From positions 1 to 64,000 of IMG/VR virus record IMGVR_UViG_3300045988_069682: DNA of 64,000 bases, one strand, 5' to 3'. Each line of letters opens with the position of its first letter. The first letter of the stretch is position 1. Origin of the DNA: a virus. Position numbers and translations under genes: made by a program. The notes below the pieces were generated by a model. It searched no databases and was not told where the DNA came from. It worked only from the letters and a program-made list of their open reading frames with translations. This document shows, in pieces, positions 9,915 through 36,310 of this stretch.

Positions 9915-9917
9915 GTT

Positions 9918-19578: not shown

Positions 19579-20010
19579 TTATGTTGCGATTGCCACCGCT
19601 AAAGCGCCGCCTAGCAATACCCACGCTATATTTCGCTGTGCCTTAATTATTTGTTGCTGCTTTTTTACCTCTTTCGCGTATAGTTCTAGTGAGTCGTTGG
19701 CAGTCTGCAATAGCAGCTCGTTGCTGCTCGATTGTTGCTTCAATGCTGTCAGCTCTGCTTGCAGCTTCTCGGTTTGCGCTTGCGCTTCGTTCAAGGCTGC
19801 TTGTGACTTCGCCAGCTCTGCTTTCAGCGCTCTGCAATCCCTCGCTAATTTGATGTTGCTGGCTGATAGCTGCTCCAACCTCGTGTCTAACAGCGTCAAT
19901 TCGCTCTCCGTTATCGTGTACTCGGCTTCCTGCGAAGAAGCAGAGGCAGGCAAAGGCAAGGCCAGCAATAAGCAGAATCCAGTGGCTTTTAATAAATTCT
20001 TTAGCTTCAT
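19579..20010 (-). CDS. signal-peptide/coiled-coil/C-terminal-TM protein (143 aa), lysis-associated?
   Basis: MKLKNLLKATGFCLLLALPLPASA, then a heptad-like coiled coil, then a C-terminal IAWVLLGGALAVAIAT. It abuts the next gene. A second full-length ORF overlaps it in another frame. Confidence 0.5.
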   Translation of the reverse strand: MKLKNLLKATGFCLLLALPLPASASSQEAEYTITESELTLLDTRLEQLSASNIKLARDCRALKAELAKSQAALNEAQAQTEKLQAELTALKQQSSSNELLLQTANDSLELYAKEVKKQQQIIKAQRNIAWVLLGGALAVAIAT

Positions 20011-20033
20011 TCATTGTTTACCTCATGAGATAC

Positions 20034-20200: not shown

Positions 20201-20707
20201 TTAATGCAGTCTATACCATTCAGCGTTACCGCGGATGGTCTGCATCTTTTCATAAAGCTTTCTGCCGGGGCAAGCAGTCGCCATAAGGTCTCTGTGGCCT
20301 ACCACGACGTTTTTCGCCGCCGTCAGACTGTAGATATTGCACAGCTCACCAATGAGCGCAGAGAGGCTGTTAAGCTGCTCTGGAGTAGGGCGTGCAATCT
20401 CAAAGTTTCCGCACACATGGATACCGATAGTATCTCTGTTTCTACCGTAAGCATGAGCACCAACAGCCCATCTAGGTCTGCCTCGCTCGATTGTGCCATC
20501 CTTGCGGATAACATAATGGTAGCCGATGCCAGCCCAGCCCTGAGCTTTATGAGAGTCATGAATCTCTGCCGCCGACAGGTCATCATCCGTCGGATTGCCT
20601 GTATGATGCACCACAATCATATTGGTTTGTTGGCGCTCGTTCAAGCTGTCAAAATTTAAATCTGTTTCAACGATGTCCGTGTTTCTCACCGTCCTTTTCG
20701 TCCTCAA
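20201..20707 (-). CDS. N-acetylmuramoyl-L-alanine amidase endolysin (Amidase_2/PGRP fold)
   Basis: MIVVHHTGN, GWAGIGYHYVIRKDGTIERGRP, GAHAYGRNRDTIGIHVCGNF, ACPG. The start is ambiguous (TTG 20707, GTG 20689). Confidence 0.88.
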   Translation of the reverse strand: MRTKRTVRNTDIVETDLNFDSLNERQQTNMIVVHHTGNPTDDDLSAAEIHDSHKAQGWAGIGYHYVIRKDGTIERGRPRWAVGAHAYGRNRDTIGIHVCGNFEIARPTPEQLNSLSALIGELCNIYSLTAAKNVVVGHRDLMATACPGRKLYEKMQTIRGNAEWYRLH

Positions 20708-20999
20708 ACTTGTCGGGTATGCCGTTGCCGTTTACATCGACAAAACACCCGGCAATAAATGTCACGAAGCCAATCATAGCGGGGCCTATCATTTCTTTTA
20801 TTATCGCCAGCAAGTCGCTCATTATGATTTTGCCGAACCACGCTTGGTAGCACCATGCTGCGTAATACGTCAGCACCAACAGTACCACCAAAGCGAAGTA
20901 CGACATTATCATCCATTTAATAGGCGACTGCATATCGCTGACTTTGTTCTTTGCTACCTCAATATATTTTCCGAGATAGTCCTTGAACTTGCTGAACAT
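20667..20999 (-). CDS. holin-like membrane protein (110 aa, 2-3 TM, charged C-terminus)
   Basis: Hydrophobic segments WMIMSYFALVVLLVLTYYAAW and MIGFVTFIAGCFV. Lies immediately upstream of the endolysin. Confidence 0.6.
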   Translation of the reverse strand: MFSKFKDYLGKYIEVAKNKVSDMQSPIKWMIMSYFALVVLLVLTYYAAWCYQAWFGKIIMSDLLAIIKEMIGPAMIGFVTFIAGCFVDVNGNGIPDKFEDEKDGEKHGHR

Positions 21000-21277
21000 C
21001 AGTCATCAACACCTTTTGAACAGCAGCACTTGCGAACGTCGTCGACCTCTCTTTTAACCTCTTGATAGCGCAGCAATAAGGAATTTAACTGTTCCTCGGT
21101 AGTGGCCTGTGCTACACGAATGTCGTTTATAACCTTGGTCAGTTCTTTCACCGCAAGTGTGTTGTTGTCAATGCTCTGATGCAGTGCATCATTCTCAACT
21201 CTCTGCGGTTGAACAATCAGCCAAGCCCCCGCAAACGCCAGCCCGCTAATCAAAAAGCTCAGTAACTCTAAGTCCAT
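20999..21277 (-). CDS. N-terminal TM + coiled-coil protein with C-terminal CCC motif (92 aa)
   Basis: LLSFLISGLAFAGAWLIV TM helix and a C-terminal RKCCCSKG. TGATG coupling to the holin-like gene. Confidence 0.55.
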   Translation of the reverse strand: MDLELLSFLISGLAFAGAWLIVQPQRVENDALHQSIDNNTLAVKELTKVINDIRVAQATTEEQLNSLLLRYQEVKREVDDVRKCCCSKGVDD

Positions 21278-21365: not shown

Positions 21366-24300
21366 TTAAATGTCAAATTTGTCGCCATATTTTTTCAAGC
21401 AAAGCTGTGCGACCTTTTGTTGCTTTGCTCGGTTTTTATCAACCAGCATCCTCTTTTGCGCTGGGGTGTATTTGGGGTTTGTTGTAATATCCCTAATCTC
21501 TTTTTGGAGCTTGGAGATTGTGTTTGCCGCAGTATTAACGCCAGATACAGCGACGGTAGGTTTACCCTTCTTGCCGTAACCAGCCTGCCATTTCGCAGAT
21601 GCCTCTTTGAGCTGATAGAAGTCATTCATGGTTCTGGTAAGGTTCATGTCGTTGACAACGAAGTCACGGACGAACGCCATTTCTGAAAGCTTCTTTTCTG
21701 GCAGATTGCGCTTTTCGGCAATCAGCAAGTCTGGAGCTTGCCATAAGAACATGCCCATAGTGCCTGTATAACCACGCCAGAGATTGTCAATTTTTACAGG
21801 AGACAACTTCATGATTGGGTTGTCACCCAAAGCCTTACTCATTTCACTGGTGTATGGGCCATATTGCAATTCGTCCGGCAGACGTTCCTGTGACTTGCTC
21901 ACAATGGGCTTGCCACGGAAAAAGGAGTAATTTGTAATCCACTCAGCCAGTGGCAGAAACAGAGTAGGAATAACGCCCGGCATCAGTGCGTCTCGTGCTT
22001 GGGTGCGCCAGTTTGCCATAGCCTTCGGGTCTTGACCGTTAGCCGTATCGAGCATAGCTTCCGCGCCAGAGCCAAACAGAATACCAGCTTCTTGCGGTTT
22101 GGGGATGCGAATACCATTTGGCAATATCCAGTTGGTCATCTTGACGTTCGGGTCAAGTTCCTTATACCAATCCTCATCGTGATTCCACAGCCACAGCACT
22201 ATGGACGGCAGAACTATATAGGTACCGATGCGGAGTAAAGTTCTTCTCGGGTCAGCCTTAAACATTCTATACAGCTTATCGCCGCCTTGAATACATGCGT
22301 TGAAGAACGGTACCATACGGTTGATTTGCTGACCTGTAGCACCGCTGCGGCCAAAGTTAAGAGTAATCTCTACTGCGTCGTAAGCTGCTTGGTCTACGCT
22401 CTTGCCTTTCTCTCTCGCCCGCATGAACTCGCCCATACGGGTGCCAGCTTCGGCAAGGTTGCTAATCCATTCCAGACCTTCTATCGGTTTGTGGAATATA
22501 CCTTTGATAATATCTAGCAAGCCAAGCTTCTGCCATTTTTTACCGCCAGCCATACTTTCAAGGCTACGCATAACTGATTCGCCATCGCCATAGAAGTTGG
22601 ACGAGATAACGCCACTTGCATTAAACTCGCTTCTCAACTGCTGATTATTGAGCAATGCGTTCATGCCGCGAATACTGTCGTAAATTGGAACGAAGCCGTT
22701 CTTGGAGGCGATTCCTGCAAACAATGTATCGCGAATGAGGTTGCGAAGAATAAAGGACGGAGACATTGTAGAACCAGTTCTCAGCCATTGAGCTGGCTTA
22801 GTCAGTAGAGCCATTTCGATTTCCACTAACGGCTTTACCGCAGCAGTAATAGCTGGGTACATCTCAGGGATTGTCTGATAGGAGTGCTTCTCGCCGTTGA
22901 ACATTACCGTAAAGATGCAGTTCTTGGCATCGCCGCTATTGCCCTTAACCTCCTTGATGTAGTCATCGAGCTTGTATTTATTTGCCTGTTTAACGGCATA
23001 CTGGCCAACTCTGTTACGCTCTGCCTTCTGTGTCAATGCGTTGATAGATGTAACAATAGTTCTGAGTGGCGGCACTATGTCGCGTTCGGAACCTTCGCTG
23101 CTACGATTCTTTAACGGGTCAGACACGTTCGCTAGACCTTTGCCAGAGTTAATCTGGTCGATGAAACTGTCAACAGCAGCGGTGTCGCTGAAATCACGCA
23201 TCAACGGGCAATAAGCCTTGTAACGAGATTTGGTTGCTAAGTATCTGTCCCCGGTAATCAAGCCAGTGTTGTACAGAATATCCAGCATGTTGTCAGTAAT
23301 GCCTTTGAACATCTTGGCATATTCTTTGAAACCAACAGGAGCTTCTTTGATGACCTGCCGAATTTCCTGCTCAGTCATACCGCCCGGAAATTTATAAGGC
23401 TCAAAGATAGGCTTATCACCATGCGAGCCTTTCTTTTCCCATTCGGCTACACTGCGGTCGTAGTCAAGTCTATGGTTTTGCGCGGACTCCAACAGGCTTC
23501 TGGCAACCAAATAATTTTCGATTGCGCTGATGTGTTCTTCGAGTTCCGCTTTGCCTTGCGGATTAGTGGATTTAACGTAATTGGTAAATCGGCCAGCCTT
23601 CATATCTGTGCCGATTTTCTCCATGAGCATCTGCAAGGAAACCATGTTCTTGATGCCATATTTGTTTGCCGCCTGTTTCAACTCATCTGCATTGCCTTCC
23701 AGCAGAGCCATTGCCATGCCAGAAGCGCTATTCGCTGCCATGTTCATGCGGCCAAGGATGGTGTTAGCTCCGTCGATTTTCTCGCCGCTCGCCTTTGCGA
23801 TTGCGTCATCGAGCAGATGCAAAGCGTCATACTTGTCAACGAAGTGTTTGTAGAATTGGCTCTTGGCATCGACTATCCACTCTTTAACCTTTTGGGTTCT
23901 GGTCTTAGGTTCCTCTCTGGCAATTCTGGAGCCGAGCTTCTGCGCTGCATTTGCGGTTTTTTCACCCTCATGGCGCTTATTGACGTAGGTACGATTCGGC
24001 AGTCCGTCGTCAATCTTTTCGACAACTTCTTTGCCATCTTTACCCAACCTTACAACAGCTCCAGCTAGAGAGAAGCTTTCAATCTCTTTAGCGTGTAGCT
24101 TTTTACGTAAAGAGCGGATTTCTGCCGCACGCAGTTTCGTGCGCTCTTTTTGCTTCTCCCCTTTGTCTTTAAGGTATTCGGCAAGTTCCTTTTGATGCTC
24201 GTTCATAATGGCGGTAATTCTATTGTCGCCAGCGCCAGCAGCATAGGCTTCCTCTAACTTACGCTTATAAGCTTCGTTAATACCTGTAATGCCTGGGTCT

Positions 24301-27300
24301 TGAGAGCGAGGCTTGCTTCGAGCAGAATATTTACAGGGATTAGTTTGACGAGCATTGACAAGGTCTTGCTTGTGTAGTATACTTTCGTCAGAAGCCCGCT
24401 TGCGGATAAGGCCTGTTAAGGTGTCGGTTCTGGCATCCTTAGCCGCCTTAGCCCAAGCGAGGCTTTTTTTGCTGTCTAAATATAATAATTCCCCGTTATT
24501 TTCAAGAGCGTTTATAAAATACTGGTAGCTCGGTTTAGCTCCGCCTACGCCAAACGCAGTTTGCGGCATGTTGACCACAGTACGCTTGCGCTCAACATCG
24601 ACTTCCAATTTTACTGGAACAACAACAGTAGCTCCGTACTCGTTTTTTACTCCTAGCACTAAAACTCTTTTGTTAGGAAATTCTTTCTTAACCCCTTTAA
24701 CATCCTCAAAATCTTTGAGAATCATCAAAGGTTCTGCCATAGCTTTTGGGATTTGTTTAATTACGGCTGGTGTCATTCCCGGATGCTTAGTTTTAGTTGA
24801 ATGGCCAAAAAACCCAGAAGAAATTTTCAAAGGATATTGCTTCGCTCCAGTTAAAACCAAAGCCAATGGCGTTTGTCTCATGAAATCCACAGTTTCAAAC
24901 TTATGTTCTTCAAACCACTTTTTCGGATTCTTCGACCACTCATCTACCATTGCAGCAAATCTATCTGAATCCTCGTCAATCTTTTTCTGTAACGCCTCAT
25001 CAAGTTTTGATTTTTTTGCTTGGTGCTTATCGCCGTCGCTGTTTCTTTTGCTGCCCTCATCTCCCCAAACCTCACCAAGCTCGATTCTACGCGCTAAATC
25101 ATGGAAGTTATCAACTTTCTCGAACATCGCTTGAGCTTTCTTGATAAAATCATAAACCTTGCGCATGAGCTTCGCTACCAATCGTTGCAGCTTGTTTTTG
25201 GCAAGAATCATTCTACCCCATGCGGTCTTTTGCAGTTCGGTTTCATGCAGTTTGGTAAACAGAGCGGCCTTTCCGCCAACGCGATTGGCTCTCAGCATCA
25301 TTCTGCCCCAAGGTGTTTTTTGCAGCTTCTCAATTTCGGATTTGGTGAAGTCGGTTATGTAACCATGCTCACGAGCAGACACGAAGTTGCGCACTGCGTC
25401 AGCAGCGATTTCCTCTGCGTCTTTCTCAATACCATACTCTTCGGCAATCTTCTCTGCTCTGTCAAACAGGATTTTCTTCTCCTGCTCGTTGAGTGCCAAA
25501 TCAATCGCTGCATGAGTAGCTTCGTGAGCCTCAGTATTCTCTCTGGAGTCCAAGGAAACACTGATGATACCTTCAACGTCAGAACTGTACATCGGGCGGT
25601 AGTAACCCTCGATAGTCATATCCGCATCGTCAGCTATGCCATGTTCTTTTCTGGCGCGCTCGGCTTCTGCTTCATTTACAAGAAGATTGTTTTGAATATC
25701 GAGGGTAAATTTGTTACCACCTTTAGTAATGATAGTGAACGTGCTATTGTCATTGACTTGAATATCATCAGTACCGAAGAGTTTTTTGCACTTCTCTAAG
25801 ATTTCATCACGAGAGCGCAGGATTTTTTCGCCAAATTCGGATTCACGGACGGAGAACTTAACCTCCGCTTTTTGATTAGCCTTGTGCAAAGCTGTGTCCA
25901 ATGCCTTTTGACGTACAGCTCCGATTTTGCTGTCGCTGTCATAAAACTCGATATGAAGCCCCGCATCCATCATAGCTTTTACTTCTTTAGTATCCGCATA
26001 TTTCTGTGGTACAACTGCGGCTTTAAAGTCTCCAAGGTTGACGCTTCGTTGACTCTTGGCTTCAAAATATTCGGTTTTGACCAGTTTCTTTACGCTATGG
26101 AAAAGATTCAAAGCTCGCTCATTAGGCAAAGCGTTAACAAGATTAGGGTTTTCTTTGAACGCCTCTTTGCCAACAAGTTCCTCCATTAAGTGTTTTTCGG
26201 ACGGGTCATCTGAATTTATGACTTTTGCAATAGCAATCAAAGCATCATCCCCAACTTTGTCATAATTACTTCTTATGGTTGGGTTGTCGAAGTCTCTTGA
26301 AAGACTACCAGACGCTTTGTGCATATCATCTACAGACTTAAACTCTCTGGCTACAAACGCCAAAAATTGTCCATAGGTCATTCTTTTTCCTTCAGACCAG
26401 TGTGCTCTCGGATATGCTTGTTTTAACATGTAGCGTTCTAGATTTTCTGTTGTAAAAGGAACATCCTTTCCTTCGGCCGGGTTAAAGAAATAGCTTTCGC
26501 CGTCGATTATTTTCTCTTTTGGAATCGTTGGAGTCCAAGCATCGCGCTCATAAACCTTCGCCGCTCCTGTGCTTGGGTCGATAAGTTCTTTACCCCCAAT
26601 CAAAGTTATTTCTCCGTAGTTGCTGTACGGCTCTCCGTCGCGTATAATCGCAAGACTTGGCGACACAAAAGTACCATTTGTTTTGCCAAAGATAACATCG
26701 CTAAGAGATTCCATGGTCAAATTGTGCAAAGCTACAAGTTTTGACGAATCTCTTGTCTTGTTAACATACCGCTTATTTGAATTATCAGTACCTTCTGGCT
26801 TTGAATCATAATCTGCATGTGATGCCTTATTTTCAACAGCCACGGCATTGCTAGTTTCTTTCGCTGCTTTTGCGATTTCTTCGACCGCTTCATGCTTGTC
26901 ATAAAGCTCTTGATACTTTTGTAAAGCTTGAAGCATTGCATCTGCATATTTTTTTACAGCATCAATGGTTTCGTCGCTCAATTCGTCATCTTTCAGACCT
27001 TTTATAAGCGCATCAAAATCTTCATCGAGTTTGCCGTCAGTCGCGTAATCAGCCGTTACGGCTGCCGCAATACTGTCTCTTCCAATATCGGCAACATCTT
27101 CTTTTTCTTGCTCGCTCAGCACTGAATCTAAAATATTTAATGCTTCTTTAGGCAGCGTTTCCAGTTCGTCCGGATTACCCTCTATTAAACCACTTGCCGC
27201 CCTAGCAACAATATTGGCATCAGTATTGCCATTTTTTACTTCTGCCAATGCGACGCGCGCATCGTGTTTTGCACGTTTTTCGTCAAATTCCAACCATATA

Positions 27301-30300
27301 GAATTTCTTGCAGCAGCCAAAGAAGTGTTTTGCTCACTTGTATATTCATCATCACTCTTTGAAGCATTTGCAAGATTCATTTGGAAGTCACGCGCTTCCG
27401 CAGCCCCAACGTGACTGTCGCCGCCCAACATGGTGTCAATCTGATTGCGCAAATCATCTAATTCTTTTATGCGCTCGGCAAATGGTTTGCTAACTTCGTC
27501 CTTGCCGCTGAATACAACCTCGTTAATGATTCGCTTAACATCAGCAGGAATCTCAAAATCAAAAGTATAAGCGTTGGCCCACTTCTTAGATTTTTCGGAT
27601 TCCCTGCCTAATGCTTTTTGTATTTTCAGCATAAATTTTTCAATATAAGATTGAATTTCTGCCTTTAAATCTGCAAACAGTTTATTGAGCCACGGAATAG
27701 GGGTATCTGCATCGGCTATATGTTTTATGATAGCCTGAGAGAAACGCTCTTCGTCAACAGGCCCGCCGTCGCTTTTAGAGCGTTGCTCTGAGTTAAAGTA
27801 AGGAGCCTGGGTATACTCTTTAGACGTTTTATCTGCCCCATTTCCTATCCATTCTCTCAGCCGTTTAAAATCATCTTTGAGTTTTTGAGGTGCAAGCGGA
27901 GACTCTGCAACCAAAGCAAAGTCTGCAAAGAACATGTGCGCCATTTCGTGGAACAATGTGGTTGTACTAGCTTTTCCAGAAAAAGCCAATCTTCCTCTTG
28001 CAGTTTTGTCAGCAGTAAATATTTGAGTTGTGAGTCCAGCAGTGCCCGCCGAAAAGCGATTATCAATTTTATCATCAAAAAATGCAAATTTATAACGCTG
28101 AGCAAACGCCAAAGGGGTATAGTTTGCGCCGAGATACTTATTGAACAGCCTAGACCACGTTTGCGCTCTAAAAGCCAAAAGCTGTGCGGCAGCTTCAATA
28201 GCATTTGTGCTGAACCGTTTCTTGGAATCATTGGAAAGAGAAGATTTTACCCAATCATAGACCTCTTGGCCTTCTTTGGACAAAGTCTCGTTGCCGTCAG
28301 CCATTGCGTCAGTAGTTGCAGATTCAAGAATCTTTTTGTCGATTTGCTCCTGCTCCTTTTTGACTGCTGCTACCTGTTTATCATATACGGATTTTCTATC
28401 GTCAACTCGCAAAAAGTCGCCCTTGCCAGCGCTGTCTTTGCTAGCTTCCAGTTTCCTTTCCAATTCACTCTTGATTTTTTCAAGCGAATCAAGAGCCTCT
28501 TCCAAAAATATCTTGCCTTCCTTATGCTGTTTGACAACATTTTCGGCGGCTTCCTTGGCATCTTTAAGTGCCTTTTGGTAAAACTCTTTTCTCGGAGCCT
28601 CAGCTTCTTCTCTAGCTCTTTTATCAGCTTCGAGTTGTTTCCTGTGCTGCTCTTTAGCATCTGCTTCTCGGTCGATGAACATTTGCTTGCGAGTTTCTTC
28701 TATTTTCTCGATGCAGTCTTTTGAAACAGTAGGAACCTGTCGTTCACTACGCGCATAAACACGTTTTAAAGCATTTACCTCCTTGGAAGCCTCGTCTATG
28801 CTAGTTTCACCATTACGCCACTTATCGCAGATTCCCTTAACTTGTTCCAGCAAGGTCGCCTCGTTGTATTTTTGAATAAGTTCAATGTTATCAACGGGGG
28901 TTTTCTTGTTCATTAGATACAAGCCATTGTTATCTGTGTTCAGTCCTTTAACGATAGCAGAAACATCTGGCTTTGTTTCAATGTCTGCTTGCTGCCTAAT
29001 TGGCGGTTCGCCTTCGCCGCTGCCAGAACCAACATCAGCAGTTGATGTATCGGTTGTACCTTCGGTGTTATCAGTATTCGCGTTTTTGAGCTTGTCGAGC
29101 ACATCCGTAAGAGTAACCTTTGGAACTGTCGGCAACTCAACGGGCTTGCTTGTGTCAATGCCATTGCTCGCAAAGAAATTTTTAACGCTCGCAGATGCCG
29201 CATCTAATCCCGGTGTCCCTTTATTGCCATTGATATTATCTTTTTGGTGCTTTTCAAGAAAATCTTTAACCTTCGATTGTCCGTAAGGAGCGTAATAAAA
29301 GCCACCAGAATCCCAGTGGAATCCAGCTTGGCCTAAAGATTTTCTCACATCAAGAGGAAGCTTGTCGGATGGAGCAATCCATACCATGTTGTCTTTTTGG
29401 CGCAGGATAGGGTTTAACTCCTTGCCACCGACTTGAATTGTTGGCAATTTGTCTGCCTTACCAACTTCATTCTTGTTAGTGTTGTCGTCCTGCTTTGGTT
29501 TTTTACCTTTCGCCGGGGTTACTGTATTACCATTGGCATTGTTATCAGAAGCATCTTGAACAAGATACTTCTTCAAAAATTCGTCTAAAGCTGGCGTATT
29601 TTCAGCAATAGAGCCTTCCTCTTTGCTCTTCCATGCAAAGCCAGCTTTCTTATATGCTTGCTTTTCTTCTTTGGTGAATTTAACACGCTTTTCCATTTTT
29701 AAAGAAACTCTGCCATCCGGCAAAGACCTTACTTCGCCTTTAACACCATTTAAGCGAATAGTGCATAGCAGTTTTCCAACATCAGTAGTCGATGTATCGG
29801 TTTTATCATCGGCATTAACATCATCTGCGTTTTTGAGCTTATCGAGTACATCCGTGAGATTAACCTTAGGAGCCTTCGGTAGTTCAACGGCCTTGCTTGT
29901 GTCAATGCCATTGCTCGCGAAAATCTCACGAAGCGTCTGGACTTCGGTTTTCGGTTCTACGTCTATTTTTGCCCCAGAGAGTTTCTCCAAAGCGGTTTTC
30001 ACCTCTGCGTTATAAGGAGCTTTAATCGCTTTCGCATTGCCGTCATACTTAAAACCAGCTTCGTAGATGATTTTTCGTTGTTCGTCTGTGGTTTCGGTAC
30101 CTTTAGGCCAAGAAATGGTAACTGTTTTGCCATCGTCCGTCAGAATCGGAGTCAACTCTTTTTTGCCGAATTTAATTTTTGGGAGAGTTTTTTGCATCTC
30201 TTGTTCGCGTTCCTCCGGCTCAGCTTTAGGCTCAGTCTTAGGCTCGGCTTTAGGCTCGGCTTTAGGCTCAGCTTTAGGCTCAGTCTTAGGTTCAGCTTTA

Positions 30301-32876
30301 GGTTCGGCCTTAGGCTCAGCTTTAGGTTCAGCTTTAGGTTCAGCCTTAGGTTCAGCCTTAGGTTCAGCGATTCTATTAAGCGCAGCAGGAACCTTTACCC
30401 CTAGCTGTTCCGCAAGTTGCATTAATCCGTTAATGTTAGCAGTTTCCGCAACTTTTGCAGCAGCGGCCTTTTTCTTTTTGTTAAGAACTCTGCTGTTTTT
30501 TATTGCGCTTTTCAAAACGCCGCGGAAGTTTTGTACTGCATGGTAGTCGTCATCAGCGCCAAGTTCCCATGCCGCAATGCCATTTTCAGCTGCATCCATA
30601 ACAGCCGCTTTGCGTGGAGCAGTCAGTTTGCTAAACCATGCCCAAGCTTCTTCGTTTCCGTTCATTGCTGCATTGAATTTTTCAACAGCATCTTGATTGT
30701 CGTTTAAAAAGGTGCGCAACGCAGGAGCCGCTCTCAGTTGTCTAACGTCAAATCCTCCATTAGCGTTCAAAAAACGGTCGGAGCCTTTCCCCTTCTTTAA
30801 ACCATCTAAGATAGCTCGTTTAGAACTTTCGTAACGAACTTTGGCCTGTGTGCCGTAGTTTGCAACGGTTTCTGCTACACCTGTGTTGGCTTCTGGAGGC
30901 ACAGGGTACTGCGCTGCGTTTTTCTTGCCGTTGTTTTGTAACGAAGAAGGAGCCTTTGCACTATTTTTAATATTTTGTTGAAGCGCTCGTCCACGAGGCG
31001 GCAAATTGCTTGTATCGACAGCTAAGACTGTTCTCAGCCTTGCTACTTCTATATCGTATTGCTCTTTGCTTATTTCGCCGCGAGCGTATCTGCCAGCCAA
31101 ATCGTTTACTTCTTGTTCATATTCTGCTCTAAGTCTGCTCACATCTGCTTGCGAAGGCGTATCGTATCGCAAATTATAGCCTTTAAGTCGAGTGGCTGCT
31201 TCGTTCAGACGGGTTAATTGTTTATCTGCATCCCGACGGCTAACGCTGCCTAATTGTACTCTGTTTTCGATTTTAGCGCGTTTTTCTTCGGTCTTGCGGT
31301 CAACATCGCTATTTGCATATACACTAGGCTTTTGCGGCATCGGCAAACCCAAAACAGGCTCTTGCTTGTTGATAGCTTTATCGACACTATCCATAGCAGC
31401 CTTATAGTTAATGCCAAAATGCTGTTCTGGCGGTCTGAAATTCATGTTGCCGCCCCGTGCCATCGCGTCAACCAAAGTGCTTGGGCTTGCGCTCATCTCG
31501 TCGAGTTTTCGCCTGGTCGCAAACATGTTTTGAATCGCATCAGAATCAATTTTTTCTTTTTGCTCAGCCCCATCCCAGCCGAATTTCATAGCAGTATTTT
31601 TAATCAATTCAGCGTCTCCGCTAGAATTAACTGCATCTATTTCGTTGCGCTGTTCGTCACTTAGGGATGGATGTTCATAAAGGCTATCGAGATATTCTTG
31701 CGCCTGTGCAACATCATCGTTCGTTGGCTGTACTTCGGGCTGAACCGATTGCTGTGTCTCAGCGGCAGCTATCTGTTCCTGCTCATTCTTGCTGTTGAGG
31801 TAGTTGGCACCAGCTCTCATCGCAGCGTTGCCGCCACCGATAGCCAAGCCGCCTACACCGCCAACGGCAGCCTGTTGCAATGCTTCGTCGCTCCACTGTA
31901 AAGGGTTTACCACGCCGAGCAAATTCTGCTTGCCTTGCGCATATTCATGGGTGGATTGTTGCATACCTTCTTCCCAAGCGTTTTGCAAACCTTCACGGGT
32001 AACGCTGCCTAGAATGGCCATCATGCCTTCTTTGCCGATTTTTTTGCCGCCAGCTTTCTCTGCTTCCTTCAAGAATAATTTGCCCAAGCCAGCAGATTCA
32101 AAGGTGTTGCTTAAACCGAGCAGAGGCATCTGCAATGCGCCTACGATAAGAGCCTGTTTTCGTGCCTCGTCGATGTTCGCGCCACTTTCCAACGCTTCCG
32201 CACCAGCATTACCCATTTCAGAAGAAACTTCAACGGGGGTTTTCAAAATATTCAAAGCATAGAGCTTGCCCATAGGGCCATCCAACACCTTTGCAAGTTT
32301 GGGCATACCTGCTTTGGCGGCAGCTCTGCTCATGCCTCCGCTGATTTTACCTGCAAGGGCAAGGCCTCTAGCCGCGCCGCCAACACCTGCTGCACCACCA
32401 ACGCCAAGAGCGCCGAGGGCTGCGCCGCCAGTTGCTGCAACGGCGGCAGTCTCTGCACCAAGGACGGCCGAAGAGCCGAGCATATTAGCAACGTCATATG
32501 CCGCACCATCGCCATTAGTCCAGTAGTCGCTGGCGAATGGAATCATATCTGCAATAGTATATTCTTTTTTGCGGGCGTTGTTCTGCATAGATTCACCCAA
32601 CGCATTGGCTGTGGCACCGTCTCCAATGCCCATCAAGTTGCTCAACTGTGCTTGACCTTGCAGCACGCCCAAGGCACCGGATTTAAAGCCTCTGGTAAAA
32701 CCCCAACTGTCATCTTGAAGCGCACCTTGCTGCGCTGTGGGCAGCGCGCTTTCGTCGAGGTTCATTTGTTTCATATAAGAATCGGCGTATTCATGTGCTG
32801 GCATGTTGCCTAACTTTCGCATACGCTCGGAAAAGTTTTTGTACCCTTCACTTGGGTTTTCGTAATCAAACATCAT
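21366..32876 (-). CDS. giant multi-module virion-associated (internal/ejection, polyvalent-type) protein, ~3,836 aa
   Basis: Uninterrupted 11.5-kb ORF. AGGAGG lies just upstream of ATGATG (32876/32873). It contains two HExxH motifs, tandem AEPK repeats, internal module duplications and a hydrophobic N-terminus. It is the last structural gene before the lysis cassette. Confidence 0.85.
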   Translation of the reverse strand: MMFDYENPSEGYKNFSERMRKLGNMPAHEYADSYMKQMNLDESALPTAQQGALQDDSWGFTRGFKSGALGVLQGQAQLSNLMGIGDGATANALGESMQNNARKKEYTIADMIPFASDYWTNGDGAAYDVANMLGSSAVLGAETAAVAATGGAALGALGVGGAAGVGGAARGLALAGKISGGMSRAAAKAGMPKLAKVLDGPMGKLYALNILKTPVEVSSEMGNAGAEALESGANIDEARKQALIVGALQMPLLGLSNTFESAGLGKLFLKEAEKAGGKKIGKEGMMAILGSVTREGLQNAWEEGMQQSTHEYAQGKQNLLGVVNPLQWSDEALQQAAVGGVGGLAIGGGNAAMRAGANYLNSKNEQEQIAAAETQQSVQPEVQPTNDDVAQAQEYLDSLYEHPSLSDEQRNEIDAVNSSGDAELIKNTAMKFGWDGAEQKEKIDSDAIQNMFATRRKLDEMSASPSTLVDAMARGGNMNFRPPEQHFGINYKAAMDSVDKAINKQEPVLGLPMPQKPSVYANSDVDRKTEEKRAKIENRVQLGSVSRRDADKQLTRLNEAATRLKGYNLRYDTPSQADVSRLRAEYEQEVNDLAGRYARGEISKEQYDIEVARLRTVLAVDTSNLPPRGRALQQNIKNSAKAPSSLQNNGKKNAAQYPVPPEANTGVAETVANYGTQAKVRYESSKRAILDGLKKGKGSDRFLNANGGFDVRQLRAAPALRTFLNDNQDAVEKFNAAMNGNEEAWAWFSKLTAPRKAAVMDAAENGIAAWELGADDDYHAVQNFRGVLKSAIKNSRVLNKKKKAAAAKVAETANINGLMQLAEQLGVKVPAALNRIAEPKAEPKAEPKAEPKAEPKAEPKAEPKTEPKAEPKAEPKAEPKTEPKAEPEEREQEMQKTLPKIKFGKKELTPILTDDGKTVTISWPKGTETTDEQRKIIYEAGFKYDGNAKAIKAPYNAEVKTALEKLSGAKIDVEPKTEVQTLREIFASNGIDTSKAVELPKAPKVNLTDVLDKLKNADDVNADDKTDTSTTDVGKLLCTIRLNGVKGEVRSLPDGRVSLKMEKRVKFTKEEKQAYKKAGFAWKSKEEGSIAENTPALDEFLKKYLVQDASDNNANGNTVTPAKGKKPKQDDNTNKNEVGKADKLPTIQVGGKELNPILRQKDNMVWIAPSDKLPLDVRKSLGQAGFHWDSGGFYYAPYGQSKVKDFLEKHQKDNINGNKGTPGLDAASASVKNFFASNGIDTSKPVELPTVPKVTLTDVLDKLKNANTDNTEGTTDTSTADVGSGSGEGEPPIRQQADIETKPDVSAIVKGLNTDNNGLYLMNKKTPVDNIELIQKYNEATLLEQVKGICDKWRNGETSIDEASKEVNALKRVYARSERQVPTVSKDCIEKIEETRKQMFIDREADAKEQHRKQLEADKRAREEAEAPRKEFYQKALKDAKEAAENVVKQHKEGKIFLEEALDSLEKIKSELERKLEASKDSAGKGDFLRVDDRKSVYDKQVAAVKKEQEQIDKKILESATTDAMADGNETLSKEGQEVYDWVKSSLSNDSKKRFSTNAIEAAAQLLAFRAQTWSRLFNKYLGANYTPLAFAQRYKFAFFDDKIDNRFSAGTAGLTTQIFTADKTARGRLAFSGKASTTTLFHEMAHMFFADFALVAESPLAPQKLKDDFKRLREWIGNGADKTSKEYTQAPYFNSEQRSKSDGGPVDEERFSQAIIKHIADADTPIPWLNKLFADLKAEIQSYIEKFMLKIQKALGRESEKSKKWANAYTFDFEIPADVKRIINEVVFSGKDEVSKPFAERIKELDDLRNQIDTMLGGDSHVGAAEARDFQMNLANASKSDDEYTSEQNTSLAAARNSIWLEFDEKRAKHDARVALAEVKNGNTDANIVARAASGLIEGNPDELETLPKEALNILDSVLSEQEKEDVADIGRDSIAAAVTADYATDGKLDEDFDALIKGLKDDELSDETIDAVKKYADAMLQALQKYQELYDKHEAVEEIAKAAKETSNAVAVENKASHADYDSKPEGTDNSNKRYVNKTRDSSKLVALHNLTMESLSDVIFGKTNGTFVSPSLAIIRDGEPYSNYGEITLIGGKELIDPSTGAAKVYERDAWTPTIPKEKIIDGESYFFNPAEGKDVPFTTENLERYMLKQAYPRAHWSEGKRMTYGQFLAFVAREFKSVDDMHKASGSLSRDFDNPTIRSNYDKVGDDALIAIAKVINSDDPSEKHLMEELVGKEAFKENPNLVNALPNERALNLFHSVKKLVKTEYFEAKSQRSVNLGDFKAAVVPQKYADTKEVKAMMDAGLHIEFYDSDSKIGAVRQKALDTALHKANQKAEVKFSVRESEFGEKILRSRDEILEKCKKLFGTDDIQVNDNSTFTIITKGGNKFTLDIQNNLLVNEAEAERARKEHGIADDADMTIEGYYRPMYSSDVEGIISVSLDSRENTEAHEATHAAIDLALNEQEKKILFDRAEKIAEEYGIEKDAEEIAADAVRNFVSAREHGYITDFTKSEIEKLQKTPWGRMMLRANRVGGKAALFTKLHETELQKTAWGRMILAKNKLQRLVAKLMRKVYDFIKKAQAMFEKVDNFHDLARRIELGEVWGDEGSKRNSDGDKHQAKKSKLDEALQKKIDEDSDRFAAMVDEWSKNPKKWFEEHKFETVDFMRQTPLALVLTGAKQYPLKISSGFFGHSTKTKHPGMTPAVIKQIPKAMAEPLMILKDFEDVKGVKKEFPNKRVLVLGVKNEYGATVVVPVKLEVDVERKRTVVNMPQTAFGVGGAKPSYQYFINALENNGELLYLDSKKSLAWAKAAKDARTDTLTGLIRKRASDESILHKQDLVNARQTNPCKYSARSKPRSQDPGITGINEAYKRKLEEAYAAGAGDNRITAIMNEHQKELAEYLKDKGEKQKERTKLRAAEIRSLRKKLHAKEIESFSLAGAVVRLGKDGKEVVEKIDDGLPNRTYVNKRHEGEKTANAAQKLGSRIAREEPKTRTQKVKEWIVDAKSQFYKHFVDKYDALHLLDDAIAKASGEKIDGANTILGRMNMAANSASGMAMALLEGNADELKQAANKYGIKNMVSLQMLMEKIGTDMKAGRFTNYVKSTNPQGKAELEEHISAIENYLVARSLLESAQNHRLDYDRSVAEWEKKGSHGDKPIFEPYKFPGGMTEQEIRQVIKEAPVGFKEYAKMFKGITDNMLDILYNTGLITGDRYLATKSRYKAYCPLMRDFSDTAAVDSFIDQINSGKGLANVSDPLKNRSSEGSERDIVPPLRTIVTSINALTQKAERNRVGQYAVKQANKYKLDDYIKEVKGNSGDAKNCIFTVMFNGEKHSYQTIPEMYPAITAAVKPLVEIEMALLTKPAQWLRTGSTMSPSFILRNLIRDTLFAGIASKNGFVPIYDSIRGMNALLNNQQLRSEFNASGVISSNFYGDGESVMRSLESMAGGKKWQKLGLLDIIKGIFHKPIEGLEWISNLAEAGTRMGEFMRAREKGKSVDQAAYDAVEITLNFGRSGATGQQINRMVPFFNACIQGGDKLYRMFKADPRRTLLRIGTYIVLPSIVLWLWNHDEDWYKELDPNVKMTNWILPNGIRIPKPQEAGILFGSGAEAMLDTANGQDPKAMANWRTQARDALMPGVIPTLFLPLAEWITNYSFFRGKPIVSKSQERLPDELQYGPYTSEMSKALGDNPIMKLSPVKIDNLWRGYTGTMGMFLWQAPDLLIAEKRNLPEKKLSEMAFVRDFVVNDMNLTRTMNDFYQLKEASAKWQAGYGKKGKPTVAVSGVNTAANTISKLQKEIRDITTNPKYTPAQKRMLVDKNRAKQQKVAQLCLKKYGDKFDI
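30217..30369 (-). repeat. 12-nt tandem repeat x ~13 encoding (A/T)EPK
   Basis: ggctcagcttta-type units with synonymous variation. In frame within the giant ORF. Confidence 0.9.
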
Positions 32877-32883
32877 GTTCCTC

Positions 32884-34692
32884 CTAGTGCTTTTTAACCC
32901 AGTTTGCAACGTCCGTTAGCTTAAAGTTATTCCACTCATCTCCCAAGGCTTCTAGAGATGCCAATATGCCAGTATGTCCGTTGGCGTTTGGAACTTCCTC
33001 TGGCTCTGGAGTAGATGCCGAAGTATTGTTGCTCAAAACATTGTCAAATTCTTCTCTGGCACCCTCGCCATCAGAGTTTTCCATATCTCCGTATGTATCT
33101 CTAAGCCACTTATCTACGGTTCGTTGCTCATCTTCGCCGAGACCACTATCAAAGTAAATCCAGTTGCGGGCTTCATCATAAGTCAGTTCACCGTTGCCAA
33201 TAGCTTTTTGGAGTTCAGCCTTAACCACACTAGCTGGAACAACATAATTATCGCCAGCCATGTAACGGTCGTAAGCCGCCAATGTATTAGTGGCGGATTG
33301 TTTCATTTCTGGACTGGCGTTCGGATTCTCTAAAACGCCTCTAGCCCACTCTACGCGCTTGTCCCATGTTGGGCCTTTGCTCGAAGAACCGCCGCCAGCA
33401 GCGCTTCTGCTTCTACCACCGCCAGAACCGCCGCCATAGCCGCCTCTGCCGCCTCTGCTACCCCCGCCACCACCGCCATAGCTATACGAAGGCGCTTTGC
33501 CAGCAATGTAACCCATGCTCTGCAAATCTTTCTGAGAGTAACGGGTGTCGCCTGTTTCGAGGAAATTCTTAGCTTCCTGTTCAGAATAGCCACGGTTTTT
33601 CATCAGCATCTTAACAGATTGGTCGTATTTATACTGCTCCAAGAAGTCGCTCTGGTTACGTTTGAATTGCCCAGATAAGCCTTCTGCCAGAATCGGGTTC
33701 AACTGACGCATCCTTGCATATGTCAATGCAGAAGCATCAATCTGCCCACTTTGTACCTGTTGTTTGTAAAGGTCATACAAGGCGTTGAATTGCTGTGCGT
33801 TGTTTTGCTCGACCTTGTTTGCAATGTCCGGTTCAATAATCTTCATTACCTGCTCAATCTGATATGGTGTTCTGCCGTTTTTTAACATTTCCGAACGGGC
33901 AATAGCCGAAAGACTTTCTTTGCTAAGAGGAATGTTGTTCAGATTCGCATTAGCAATCTGACCTTTTGCCGCAAGAGCTGTAATGGTGCGCTTATCTTCT
34001 TCGGGATTGTCAGTGCCGCTGTATTTTTGTACAACATAGTCCTGCTTCTCTGCTTTCAAATCTCGTGGAGCCTCAACCACAGGAGCCGCAACGCCTTGCC
34101 CATTAGCGGATGCGTCTGAGGAAGGGGTTGTCTGTGGCTGAGGCTGAGAAAAATTTGCAGACGGCACCTGCTGACCGTTAACAGTTAAATTCTGCGGCTG
34201 ATACTGCTGCGGAATACTGCCTGTTGCACTGATAGCCGCACTTTGTGGCTGAGCAAAATCCATAGAACTGATTGTGCCGCCTTGGGGAGCTGCTACGATG
34301 CCTTGACCGAAATTCAGCCCATTTGCGCCAGCGCCGATATTGCCAGCGTTTTCATAGCCAGTGCCTTGCTGCTGATGGAAACTTCCTGCACTTCCCGGCA
34401 TTGCTACCTGTTGACCGTCCACAGTTACGTTGCCGCCGCCAAACGCTCCTGTCGCGTCTTGGCCTTGCCCTTCCATCAACGCTTTCATTGCGGCATTTAT
34501 GGCTTCGGTACTTTCATCAATACCCTTCTGGGTGCCTCTGCGATTATAATTCTGCCCCCAGATTGCTCCCAGCAAGCCGCCAAGGTTATAAAAAATATCA
34601 TTGCTGCTTGAGCCTGTTGAAAAACCTGTGCTCGGGTTAATCTTAACTCCGTAGTTAGGGTTCATTTTCATTCCGTATGCGCCATAACTCAT
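32884..34692 (-). CDS. low-complexity virion protein with RGG/Gly-rich tract (602 aa)
   Basis: TAAGGAGCG SD upstream. Q/N/G-rich N-terminal half, then SYGGGGGGSRGGRGGYGGGSGGGRSRS. Confidence 0.75.
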   Translation of the reverse strand: MSYGAYGMKMNPNYGVKINPSTGFSTGSSSNDIFYNLGGLLGAIWGQNYNRRGTQKGIDESTEAINAAMKALMEGQGQDATGAFGGGNVTVDGQQVAMPGSAGSFHQQQGTGYENAGNIGAGANGLNFGQGIVAAPQGGTISSMDFAQPQSAAISATGSIPQQYQPQNLTVNGQQVPSANFSQPQPQTTPSSDASANGQGVAAPVVEAPRDLKAEKQDYVVQKYSGTDNPEEDKRTITALAAKGQIANANLNNIPLSKESLSAIARSEMLKNGRTPYQIEQVMKIIEPDIANKVEQNNAQQFNALYDLYKQQVQSGQIDASALTYARMRQLNPILAEGLSGQFKRNQSDFLEQYKYDQSVKMLMKNRGYSEQEAKNFLETGDTRYSQKDLQSMGYIAGKAPSYSYGGGGGGSRGGRGGYGGGSGGGRSRSAAGGGSSSKGPTWDKRVEWARGVLENPNASPEMKQSATNTLAAYDRYMAGDNYVVPASVVKAELQKAIGNGELTYDEARNWIYFDSGLGEDEQRTVDKWLRDTYGDMENSDGEGAREEFDNVLSNNTSASTPEPEEVPNANGHTGILASLEALGDEWNNFKLTDVANWVKKH

Positions 34693-34707: not shown

Positions 34708-35823
34708 TTACCATTCGTTTGTTGCGCCTTTGGCGATAAAGCCGTTGGCGTAATATGCGTTAGTTCCTGTCAACTTCATGTCGTAAACTTTTCTTGTGCC
34801 ATTGAAGATGACACTTTTGACTTTGCCGACATTCTTCAAGTTATCGCCAATTCTCAGCATCGCTACATCGCGCCATGTGCCGTCAGCTTTCATTAAAGGC
34901 TGAGTCAGTGTTGTGATTACGTCGTGCATGTCGCCGCCCTCGTCTTGGCAGATAACCATATAAACTTCGCTATCCAGCGGTTCCATAATCTCGACAACTT
35001 CTTCGACCTGCTTCTTATCACGAACATGGTCGTATGCCAAAACTTTGTCACCGGAAACGATTTCTCTGATAGCCTTAGTCCCTTTGGTTGTTTTAATGGG
35101 AGTTTCACCAACAAAGCAAGCGATAGCAGACGCACCGAGGTTGAGAGCACCGCCAAGGAAGCTACCCCAGCCGCTGCCGCCGCTTTGGCTTGATGTGCTG
35201 GTTGTGGTGCCAGTGCCCTTCATGGCATCCAGTGCACCCAATGTACCTCCGCTGTTCAAGCCAAGGGATGCGTTCCACAGATTCAGAGCTGGCTGCTGAG
35301 CCGCCTGTTGTGCCGCAGCAGAAGTAGTAATGTTCTGACCAGCCAAAGAAGCCTGCTGGCCATACAAGCCGTTCAATGTGCCGATATTGCTCTGATACTG
35401 TTGAGCCATGGCATCGGCAGCGTTCTTGGAAATATCGTTCAGAGCTGTGTTTGTCACGCTGCTGTTAAGGATGCCTCTGGAACCAAGGCTGTTAAGAGTG
35501 CTGCCCATAGTGTTGTTTACGCCGCTTCGGATAGCGTTCTCCATGTTCTGCTGATATGCAGACGGCAAAATGCCTTGTGTCAGATTGGCTACACCTTGTT
35601 GCGCCGCAGAGGTCTGCTGATTGGCGTTGTTTAATAACTGGTTGTAGTCAACTTGGATTGTACCCAAGCTGTCTTGCAGTAAACCTCTCGCTACGCCGTT
35701 CAGCCACAGTGCGTTAGGTGCAATAGCCTCGGAATAATCAGCGGCCGCTTTTTGCAGTCGAATTTCCTGCTCTGTTGGTTTGTAGGATTGTACAGTTGTC
35801 GAACTGCCGCCTTTTTTACCCAT
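34708..35823 (-). CDS. virion protein with C-terminal Hint (Hedgehog/intein-like) domain (371 aa)
   Basis: The Hint module starts at ...SAIA|CFVGETPIKT and ends at VYDMKLTGTNAYYANGFIAKG, leaving only 5 residues after it. The N-terminal ~230 aa are Q/N/A/G-rich. Confidence 0.7.
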   Translation of the reverse strand: MGKKGGSSTTVQSYKPTEQEIRLQKAAADYSEAIAPNALWLNGVARGLLQDSLGTIQVDYNQLLNNANQQTSAAQQGVANLTQGILPSAYQQNMENAIRSGVNNTMGSTLNSLGSRGILNSSVTNTALNDISKNAADAMAQQYQSNIGTLNGLYGQQASLAGQNITTSAAAQQAAQQPALNLWNASLGLNSGGTLGALDAMKGTGTTTSTSSQSGGSGWGSFLGGALNLGASAIACFVGETPIKTTKGTKAIREIVSGDKVLAYDHVRDKKQVEEVVEIMEPLDSEVYMVICQDEGGDMHDVITTLTQPLMKADGTWRDVAMLRIGDNLKNVGKVKSVIFNGTRKVYDMKLTGTNAYYANGFIAKGATNEW

Positions 35824-36310
35824 TAAGCACACCCTCTTTCCGTAATTTCTCTTTCATTTTTTCAATTAGCGGGCTGGTTGCTTTGGTGTTGAAATAATGA
35901 GTTACCCAATAAACTGGCTCGCCTGTCTTTTCGTCGTTGTGTTTGTGTGTGATGATAACCAATCTGCCGATGCTGTCTTGGCACCAATAACGGAAGCGCC
36001 CGTCAACATCTTCCTTTTCGATTGTCTCCCAGCCAAAGCCGCGGATGTACGGTTCGATGTGTCGGGTGCAAATGCTGGCTACACACTCAAAACCAGCCGT
36101 GCAGCTTACGAGTTCAGCATAATCACGCCAAAATTTAGCGTCGCCGCATACTTGGTAAATAATCATCATTTTGCCTTCAAAGTCGGGCTTCATGCTCGCG
36201 AAACCTCTTTCCGGCATATACAAAAGGCGATAGCCCGGTAATAAATCAAAGCTATCGCCTGTTTTGATTTCATAAATTTCAATCCATTCTTTAAGGCTTT
36301 TAGCCTTCAT
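35816..36310 (-). CDS. hypothetical structural-module protein (164 aa)
   Basis: AAAGGCGGT SD upstream. No motif recognised. Confidence 0.65.
   Translation of the reverse strand: MKAKSLKEWIEIYEIKTGDSFDLLPGYRLLYMPERGFASMKPDFEGKMMIIYQVCGDAKFWRDYAELVSCTAGFECVASICTRHIEPYIRGFGWETIEKEDVDGRFRYWCQDSIGRLVIITHKHNDEKTGEPVYWVTHYFNTKATSPLIEKMKEKLRKEGVLNG

Follow-up and report, generated by a model that had tools for sequence, protein, structure and literature searches.

A putative giant polyvalent ejection protein encoded between the virion and lysis genes of a predicted short-tailed phage

Large polyvalent proteins of phages and conjugative elements were described by Iyer, Burroughs, Anand, de Souza and Aravind (2017, J Bacteriol; PMC5512222), and the domains LPD38, PBECR5 and MuF_C were all defined from such proteins. 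Self-processing of the polypeptide by metallopeptidase modules and the targeting of host or defence RNAs by PBECR-type ribonucleases (RNases) were proposed in the same work, which also noted a zincin-like module in the similarly huge virion RNA polymerase of phage N4 (PMC5512222). The gene examined here, referred to as the giant gene, lies on the minus strand of a 64,000-nucleotide virus sequence (IMG/VR record IMGVR_UViG_3300045988_069682, positions 1 to 64,000; hereafter the window), and its product carries all three of these domains.

Proteins of related type have been studied in a few podophages. The gp69 protein of JC1, which has an N-terminal lytic transglycosylase-like domain, a methylase/helicase region, LPD3, and LPD38 at residues 4195-4401, was detected in virions by mass spectrometry, and in Bcep22-like phages the corresponding gene is the last large one before the lysis genes (PMC9144972). 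In phi24B, gp47 (2,811 amino acids (aa); LPD5, LPD1, LPD38 and MuF-C) is abundant in virions but is not found on the virion outside, and it was proposed to be an ejection protein (bioRxiv 10.64898/2026.04.10.717836). Knock-down of PTXU04_00025 (2,198 aa) impairs infection (bioRxiv 10.1101/2023.09.18.558157).

The giant protein of the window is, with a probability that we put at roughly 0.8, an LPD38-terminal large polyvalent protein of a phage that is packed in the capsid and ejected at infection together with effectors. Pfam searches identified LPD38 (7.8e-40), PBECR5 (2.3e-18) and MuF_C (2.2e-11), and a structural model of the C-terminal part matched terminal segments of polyvalent proteins, in agreement with the polyvalent-style fusion to effector modules suggested in an initial annotation that used the sequence without database searches. 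That annotation had also read the product as either internal to the virion of a short-tailed phage or ejected from it, a reading supported by the podovirus-type virion module, the position of the gene, the occurrence of LPD38-carrying giant proteins in virions, and the need for one relative in efficient infection.

Continuity of the gene and its conserved frame

The giant protein was found to consist of a constant frame with swappable cargo. The frame is made up of an N-terminal domain (residues ~55-445), a module with an HExxH motif and a downstream Glu (~2375-2625) and a C-terminal block (2975-3836), and it is present in dozens of metagenomic and prophage proteins of 2.5-5.9k aa. The coding sequence and the parts of the frame are as follows.

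21366-32876 (-), giant-protein coding sequence, 3,836 aa from the ATG at 32876; stop codon at 21366-21368, alternative ATG at 32873
32880-32885 (-), ribosome-binding site AGGAGG
31542-32714 (-), conserved N-terminal domain, residues ~55-445 (~390 aa), Gly/Ala-rich, predicted to be all-helical
32349-32471 (-), Gly/Ala-rich hydrophobic stretch, residues ~136-176, glycine-zipper-like, low model confidence
25002-25751 (-), frame module with the second HExxH motif, residues ~2375-2625; HEATH at residues 2451-2455 (25512-25526)
25182-25343 (-), insertion of ~50 aa found only in the nearest clade; contains the duplicated KTPWGRMMLRANR / KTAWGRMILAKNK
21369-23954 (-), conserved C-terminal block, residues 2975-3836 (~860 aa)
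22185-22241 (-), hydrophobic helix TLLRIGTYIVLPSIVLWLW, residues 3546-3564, conserved in the family as YIxLPSxxLW
21669-22175 (-), LPD38 (Pfam), residues 3568-3736; 137 bits against a cutoff of 27, full profile (1-189)

A single uninterrupted minus-strand open reading frame (ORF) had been reported at 21366-32909, and it was indeed found to be unbroken over these positions, with 3847 aa when counted from the first in-frame TTG. The likely start of the protein is the ATG at 32876 or that at 32873, and the AGGAGG said to lie just upstream of this ATGATG was seen at 32885-32880. As the AGGAGG overlaps the TAG stop codon (32886-32884) of the upstream gene, which encodes a 602-aa protein, translation of the giant gene is probably coupled to that of the preceding gene. 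The predicted mass of the polypeptide is ~425 kDa.

The least probable of the explanations considered is that several real genes were joined into one ORF by an artefact of assembly or fusion. Two close relatives carry runs of N inside the gene, indicating that it is hard to assemble, and in these two nearest relatives (L002 and L003) the giant gene looks split; however, every split falls on a run of N, and the splits were therefore rejected as evidence against continuity. No stop occurs in 3,847 codons in the window, and a run of ~3,840 stop-free codons has an estimated chance probability of ~e^-190 at ~5% stop codons. The N- and the C-terminal domain occur together in dozens of proteins of 2.5-5.9k aa, and ~60 of 80 loci from GTDB genomes have an uninterrupted ORF of 1,500-4,174 aa with the C-terminal block at its end, one such ORF, of 3,799 aa, being in the genome of a Megasphaera isolate. 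As these ~60 independent loci include isolate genomes and have the same ends, the giant ORF is genuine.

The C-terminal block is ~4.5 times longer than the Pfam LPD38 model. It corresponds to the family phrog_9854 (PHROGs), which spans residues 2975-3828, and has 26 invariant columns over 21 sequences with identity down to 22%; a further ~145 residues upstream of the block are conserved in closer relatives only. An AlphaFold2 model of the block was mostly helical with a small beta element (predicted local distance difference test score (pLDDT) 76.8; predicted template-modelling score (pTM) 0.73). When this model was compared using Foldseek, no match was found in the PDB (best E 0.54, template-modelling score (TM) <0.1), whereas 80 matches at E<=1e-3 were found in BFVD, with query TM (TMq) of 0.6-0.83 to terminal segments. 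Nearly all of the 50 BFVD matches listed were the last segment of multi-part viral entries, many of them named large polyvalent proteins. Matches included Escherichia coli phage PTXU04 (TMq 0.73) and Ralstonia phage Alix, and among the partner domains named were RelA/SpoT, LT_GEWL (lytic transglycosylase), Zeta toxin and a type I methylase. In tblastn searches, the block matched PTXU04 (9e-30), the 'DarB-like' protein of BcepMigl (2e-8) and those of Bcep22-like Burkholderia and Ralstonia phages, a 'virion structural protein' of Aeromonas phage phiARM81mr, and proteins of Bacillus Pagevirus and of Vibrio and Pelagibacter podophages.

The last ~1,100 aa had been described as a block containing a transmembrane-like helix. 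This helix is present at residues 3546-3564, but the block shared across the family is the shorter one of ~860 aa, and as the helix lies within a confidently folded helical domain of the model it may be a buried core helix. Using a Kyte-Doolittle mean of >1.4 over 19 residues, only two hydrophobic segments were detected in the giant protein, namely this helix and the Gly/Ala stretch near the N-terminus.

The description of the first ~400 aa as Gly/Ala-rich and hydrophobic was borne out, with a G+A content of 34% in residues 1-200 and 26% in residues 201-400, and AAVAATGG at residue 144. An exhaustive HMMER search with residues 1-1200 found the domain (residues ~55-445) in N-terminal position in ~35 proteins with lengths of 2.5-5.9k aa; by a local profile search, at least 23 of them were seen to have the C-terminal block at the other end. 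Gly, Tyr, Glu and Pro are invariant at certain positions, and the motifs of the domain include SDYWTNPxGxAYDxGN and QNAWEEGMQ. The domain was found in giant genes of prophage-like loci in a Ruminococcus metagenome-assembled genome (MAG), a Phascolarctobacterium MAG and a Megasphaera isolate genome. A word-index search with residues 1-830 had given no match at 1e-5, which was misleading since the exhaustive search found the family. The domain has no match in Pfam, and none by tblastn in 50,697 phage records. Its model is all-helical (pLDDT 67.7) and matched no PDB entry using Foldseek (best E 0.2, TM <0.2); membrane proteins listed in the PDB searches for both ends of the giant protein (TM <0.2) were regarded as noise.

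In several relatives, a peptidoglycan hydrolase directly follows the N-terminal domain (SLT, 1.7e-8; Peptidase_M15_3, 2.7e-12; Glucosaminidase, 5.7e-12). Many relatives (P0049, P0051, P0062, P0069, P0072, P0080 and P0090) have a conserved ~130-aa domain immediately after the N-terminal domain, at about residues 350-470, with the motif DGTNCMRT...PGDxAVV..GNHxVMV. Its Cys/His pattern resembles that of CHAP/NlpC amidases; this likeness was seen by eye and the domain had no Pfam match, and such an identity is therefore not claimed.

Two separate HExxH motifs had been pointed out, and these are located at residues 1643 and 2451. The second belongs to the frame, and its module was found in 27 of 178 collected proteins, a set that comprises close relatives as well as unrelated repeat matches. 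In 14 diverged members, H76, E77, H80 and E114 (numbered in the 250-aa module) are invariant, with the Glu 34 residues downstream, a pattern that would fit a gluzincin-type metal site and makes the module a candidate processing metallopeptidase. A PDB profile search with the alignment gave no match, and Pfam analysis of the 14 members gave only faint ones to Peptidase_M41 (2 members, 0.011) and Tox-MPTase2 (0.07). The short duplicated segment recorded in the initial annotation, KTxWGRM, occurs at residues 2520 and 2550, within the clade-specific insertion.

Variable cargo between the conserved parts

The cargo in this protein comprises an (A/T)EPK spacer, three small modules, a charged stretch, a further HExxH module, and PBECR5 and MuF_C, arranged as follows.

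30217-30368 (-), (A/T)EPK tandem repeat, residues 837-888; 10 AEPK, 2 TEPK and a partial AEPE
29967-30176 (-), ~65-aa module, copy 1, residues 901-970
29775-29936 (-), linker, copy 1, residues 981-1034
29547-29759 (-), ~65-aa module, copy 2, diverged, residues ~1040-1110
29241-29438 (-), ~65-aa module, copy 3, residues 1147-1212
29028-29189 (-), linker, copy 2, residues 1230-1283, 68.5% identical to copy 1
28197-29009 (-), charged stretch, residues 1290-1560, with 30-39% K/E/D/R in the covering tiles; near relatives only
27477-28199 (-), cargo module with the first HExxH motif; HEMAH at residues 1643-1647 (27936-27950)
25752-26924 (-), PBECR5 module, predicted BECR-fold RNase, residues ~1985-2375; Pfam match at 2044-2120 (26517-26747)
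24462-24797 (-), MuF_C (PBECR-type) domain, residues 2694-2805

The (A/T)EPK repeat is probably a flexible spacer. Tandem Repeats Finder gave 12.7 copies of a 12-nucleotide unit, so that of the 13 units originally counted 12 are full and the thirteenth is partial. All three ~65-aa modules that had been recognised are present, but the middle one is much diverged. Residues 901-1018 and 1147-1267 share 45% identity over 124 columns (E 2e-20), whereas the middle copy is only 21-31% identical to the others, with an AGF(x)W/Y core common to all; the two linker copies are as had been proposed. A profile of the three modules found nothing significant in the PDB, with a tentative lead to 2kta, a 'putative helicase' domain (E 1.2), and tblastn of the repeat-module region against plasmids gave no match. 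The charged stretch that follows looks coiled-coil-like by eye, and residues 1800-1985 form an acidic stretch.

The first HExxH motif is kept in two to three homologues, including the distant P0032 and P0035, and the module containing it is a candidate zincin-like metallopeptidase. In the PBECR5 module, the motifs LVALHNLT and YFEAKxQR are conserved with a distant PBECR5 protein. In MuF_C and its alleles, the conserved His and the downstream Ser/Thr of the PBECR configuration are still present. As both BECR-type modules keep these His and Ser/Thr positions, they may be active RNases.

Comparison with related genomes indicated that near relatives gain or lose whole modules while the ends stay constant. 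The close relatives P0026 and P0029 (89% identical) are without the PBECR5 module and have a different MuF_C allele. In L003, which shares 88-97% identity over the aligned DNA segments, an extra module of ~1.2 kb and ~406 aa (L003 coordinates 3400-4618; starting ...AAWHGSPH...GWGLYFA) is located between the PBECR5 and the second HExxH module, at ~25825-25840 in the window; it has no match in Pfam. In a Pfam census of 12 family members, LPD38 was found in 12/12 and the other cargo included helicase, ResIII, SNF2, LPD1/5/23, ddrB-ParB, ART-PolyVal, PBECR1/3, MuF_C, C5 and N6 methylases, Peptidase_M15 and SLT. The G+C content of the giant gene is 0.42-0.44 in the cargo part (window 24000-30000) compared with 0.47-0.49 at both conserved ends, consistent with acquisition of the cargo from elsewhere.

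This turnover bears on the possibility that the protein is packaged and ejected but serves only as an ejection conduit, building a trans-envelope channel, with PBECR5, MuF_C and the first HExxH module being inactive relics or structural parts. In keeping with such a role, the MuF_C of phage Mu itself is considered inactive (PMC5512222), the PBECR5 match is partial, PTXU04_00025 is needed for infection with LPD38 as its sole annotated domain, and a conduit role was proposed by the authors of the phi24B study. However, the retention of the His and Ser/Thr in the MuF_C module and its alleles and the conservation of LVALHNLT and YFEAKxQR argue against relics, and the turnover of cargo among near relatives is typical of arms-race effectors rather than of scaffolding. 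A conduit without active cargo is thus considered unlikely, and delivery of effectors by a polyvalent protein is preferred. Gene continuity, domain content, frame conservation, cargo variability and synteny were each established directly.

Gene neighbourhood and proposed delivery

The genes of the window that surround the giant gene include the following.

54297-54884 (-), small terminase (TerS), upstream
52967-54313 (-), large terminase (TerL), upstream
49940-52174 (-), portal, podovirus-type, upstream, with relatives in Pseudomonas, Achromobacter and Vibrio phages
47120-48322 (-), major head protein (MCP), upstream
34708-35832 (-), 374-aa protein with a C-terminal pretoxin-HINT (PT-HINT) domain at residues 246-366 (3.4e-8)
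32884-34692 (-), 602-aa protein without a family match, beginning 16 nucleotides after the gene for the 374-aa protein
20201-21277 (-), lysis cassette, directly downstream of the giant gene
20999-21277 (-), 92-aa membrane protein of the lysis cassette
20667-20999 (-), 110-aa membrane protein of the lysis cassette
20201-20707 (-), Amidase_2 endolysin of the lysis cassette

The placement of the giant gene as the last of the virion module was confirmed, as two small membrane proteins and an Amidase_2 endolysin, together a holin/amidase lysis cassette, are encoded directly downstream. Further virion genes upstream encode two SU10-adaptor-like proteins, tail proteins, a collagen-like fibre and a weakly amidase-like protein of 459 aa. 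The Hint-domain protein that had been noticed upstream is the 374-aa protein with the PT-HINT match. Pretoxin-HINT is a self-cleaving module typical of polymorphic toxins. The 602-aa protein, which had been called RGG-rich in the initial annotation, is a candidate companion internal virion protein, and the two proteins may be further internal or ejected proteins. The phages with a related portal are taken here to be N4-like and VP93-like podophages. A tRNA-Thr(TGT) gene (46984-47059, minus strand) lies between the gene for the major head protein and the next virion gene.

Past the lysis genes are an integrase, a repressor-like helix-turn-helix protein, and an early region with RecT, YqaJ, a replisome organiser, ThyX and dUTPase. 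The source is an uncultured phage that, from its gene content, is temperate and short-tailed, and the host is probably a gut anaerobe. Using megablast against the 50,697 deposited phage genomes, the giant gene had no match and the phage no close relative. After the endolysin gene, two overlapping ORFs in different frames (19579-20014, minus strand) are nested and spanin-like, one (143 aa) with a signal peptide, a coiled coil and a C-terminal transmembrane helix and the other (123 aa) with an N-terminal transmembrane helix. Their resemblance to a spanin pair suggests a two-membrane host, which fits because the nearest prophage homologues are found in Negativicutes (Phascolarctobacterium, Megasphaera and Veillonella).

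Other regions of the window were also recorded. Between the lysis cassette and the integrase (16813-17734, minus strand) are genes for a BclA_C-like protein (148 aa, under the Pfam cutoff) and a DUF7841 protein (153 aa), the latter gene being also present in L003. In the early region (1489-2786, minus strand), HTH_3 is fused to dUTPase in a 230-aa protein, and the gene for the ThyX thymidylate synthase adjoins. At 55000-64000 on the plus strand there is a shift of strand and composition (G+C ~0.40, positive GC skew), marking a separate module that includes a RadC-like JAB protein (59483-60106).

No tape-measure, tail-tube or sheath gene had been recognisable in the initial annotation, and none was found among the late genes scanned when PHROGs and Pfam were searched. 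A tail component, whether a tape-measure-like ruler, a central fibre or a needle extension, might be considered given the great length of the protein, its Gly/Ala-rich and charged, coiled-coil-looking stretches, and its position at the end of the tail gene block. However, neither the giant protein nor its neighbours match these tail families, and the identification as a tape measure protein was rejected; in addition, the portal and adaptors are podovirus-type and phi24B gp47 is absent from the external virion reconstruction. Such a role is regarded as highly improbable.

In the relative L002 (ENA ERZ15610571 NODE_196, 98.7 kb; positions 1-23285), the C-terminal block shares 75% protein identity. 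Ordinary bacterial genes border the giant gene (~3084-13285) and its lysis genes on either side (EamA and LarA; an MnmA-type tRNA methyltransferase, Pfam tRNA_Me_trans, and a radical SAM protein), and structural genes are absent. An integrase fragment lies directly upstream of the giant gene, and two 100-N gaps lie inside it. L002 could be a prophage remnant that keeps only the giant gene and the lysis cassette, or a scaffolding misjoin.

The arrangement in L002 might be taken to indicate that the protein is not packaged but is expressed late as a multi-enzyme protein of the cytoplasm, perhaps a hub for anti-defence or superinfection exclusion, whose gene simply adjoins virion genes, and the case for packaging does draw on the virions of relatives rather than on those of this phage. 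But the scaffold gaps limit what L002 can show, LPD38 proteins of other podophages were found in virions by mass spectrometry, the giant gene is, as argued above, probably coupled translationally to the virion operon, and cell-wall hydrolases placed after the N-terminal domain in relatives only make sense for entry from outside. An unpackaged enzyme is thus very unlikely, and packaging with subsequent ejection remains the preferred explanation.

For this giant protein, we infer packaging, ejection, membrane insertion, proteolytic processing, and RNase activity with its targets. The capsid of a temperate short-tailed phage would most likely hold the protein, which at infection would leave by way of the portal and tail, either together with the DNA or before it. 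The frame would serve for incorporation into the procapsid and for passage across the cell envelope, and the N-terminal end is proposed to lead because relatives have a peptidoglycan hydrolase directly behind the N-terminal domain. T7 gp16, with its transglycosylase at the N-terminus, is a parallel for this orientation. The conserved metallopeptidase-like module would then cut the polypeptide into working pieces, and the RNase-type cargo would target RNAs of the host or of defence systems during the first minutes of an infection.

Several observations weigh against this scheme. The packaging of the giant protein is derived from homology and gene position, and neither conserved end resembles a solved ejection protein or membrane-insertion domain in Foldseek searches of the PDB. 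The strongly hydrophobic segments are limited to the Gly/Ala stretch and one possibly buried helix, and Pfam detected no peptidoglycan hydrolase domain in the giant protein itself, unlike in many relatives. The metallopeptidase assignment comes from motif conservation only, PDB and Pfam profiles giving no significant match, and the PBECR5 match covers only positions 13-87 of the 239 in the profile. Approximately 1,500 residues (450-835, 895-1560 and 1800-1985) have no assignable function.

A wider reading, possible though rather doubtful, is that the frame alone suffices as a self-processing protein-delivery chassis, taking into the host cytoplasm almost any enzyme placed between its ends. It is raised because the terminal domains are without likeness to solved structures and the N-terminal domain is without a Pfam model or a match in deposited phages. 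Were it true, the frame would be the equivalent, in phages, of a polymorphic-toxin or Rhs carrier, and perhaps a vehicle that could be programmed, and the arrangement in L002 would hint at domestication.

Polyvalent giants fill about a fifth of some podophage genomes and at least one is needed for efficient infection. We know of no structure or mechanism for the conserved parts of these proteins. The architecture here is clear, with two constant ends and a constant HExxH module around cargo that changes even between near-identical phages, making it a clean case for studying the packaging and delivery of a 425-kDa protein. Such genes would be better labelled as virion-internal polyvalent or ejection proteins than as 'DarB-like', 'methylase' or 'tail fibre'.

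Comparison with known systems

The T7 internal core proteins, the P22 ejection proteins and the N4 virion RNA polymerase belong to short-tailed phages and lie inside the capsid; they exit ahead of the DNA or along with it, and function within the envelope or across it. The resemblance of the giant protein to T7 gp14-gp15-gp16, the P22 proteins and the N4 polymerase is one of functional logic only, so that the comparison with T7 gp14-16 and the N4 enzyme made at the outset holds as an analogy but not as similarity of sequence or fold. Membership of a T7-type core was rejected, as no sequence or fold similarity was found; a phmmer search of the whole protein against the PDB gave only compositional matches of circumsporozoite and TonB-type proteins to the AEPK repeat. 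The giant protein also differs from the T7 core in being one polypeptide, not three, and has no SLT or transglycosylase match in Pfam. Identity with an N4-like virion RNA polymerase was likewise rejected, there being no Pfam match and only a match to the N4 mini-vRNAP (3c46_A) at E 3.3 and TM 0.06.

The MuF_C (PBECR-type) domain and the idea of a capsid-delivered effector are shared with MuF / SPP1 gp7 proteins and MuF-fused polymorphic toxins. In contrast to MuF proteins, MuF_C is here an internal cargo module; as only MuF_C at 2694-2805 and not the N-terminal MuF domain was detected using Pfam, a MuF / SPP1 gp7 head morphogenesis protein was rejected.

PTXU04_00025 has the same LPD38-type C-terminal block, with the tblastn match of 9e-30 and a predicted-fold TM of 0.73, but no further annotated domain. 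The Stx phage phi24B gp47 is linked to the giant protein through the shared Pfam domain only, its other domains being LPD5 and LPD1. The giant protein is 1,000-1,600 aa longer than these two. In Bacillus phage Pony, Pony_20 is encoded between the virion lysin and the holin, the same placement as that of the giant gene.

Among the LPD38 proteins detected in virions, only the Bcep22-like group is tied to the giant protein by a direct sequence match (BcepMigl, 2e-8). Like Bcep22 gp75 and JC1 gp69, which belong to temperate podoviruses, the giant protein has a C-terminal LPD38 block, takes up about a fifth of the genome, and is encoded at the end of the morphogenesis module. These proteins differ in having a lytic transglycosylase start, a DNA methylase and SNF2-type helicase ('DarB-like') and LPD3, none of which is found here. 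A P1 DarB-like identity was rejected since no methylase or helicase match was found using Pfam, NCBIfam or PHROGs, though both occur in other family members.

Polyvalent giant proteins inside virions are a known kind, of which the giant protein is a further example. The new elements are a definition of the conserved frame, including an N-terminal domain not covered by any Pfam model and a C-terminal block several times the length of the LPD38 model, and the predicted combination of cargo, with two RNase-type modules, an extra HExxH module and three small repeats but no hydrolase, methylase or helicase. The giant protein is without the methylase-helicase dyad, ART and ParB that are the commonest cargo of large polyvalent proteins, and its subfamily is set apart from polyvalent proteins at large by the ~390-aa N-terminal domain and the longer C-terminal block. 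With the large polyvalent proteins (PMC5512222), however, it shares a single giant polypeptide with unrelated effector-type domains, the combination of LPD38, PBECR5 and MuF_C, HExxH modules that are candidates for the suggested processing role, cargo that varies between relatives, and a location with portal-terminase and virion genes, those for TerS, TerL, the portal, MCP, adaptors and tail proteins all being on the same strand.

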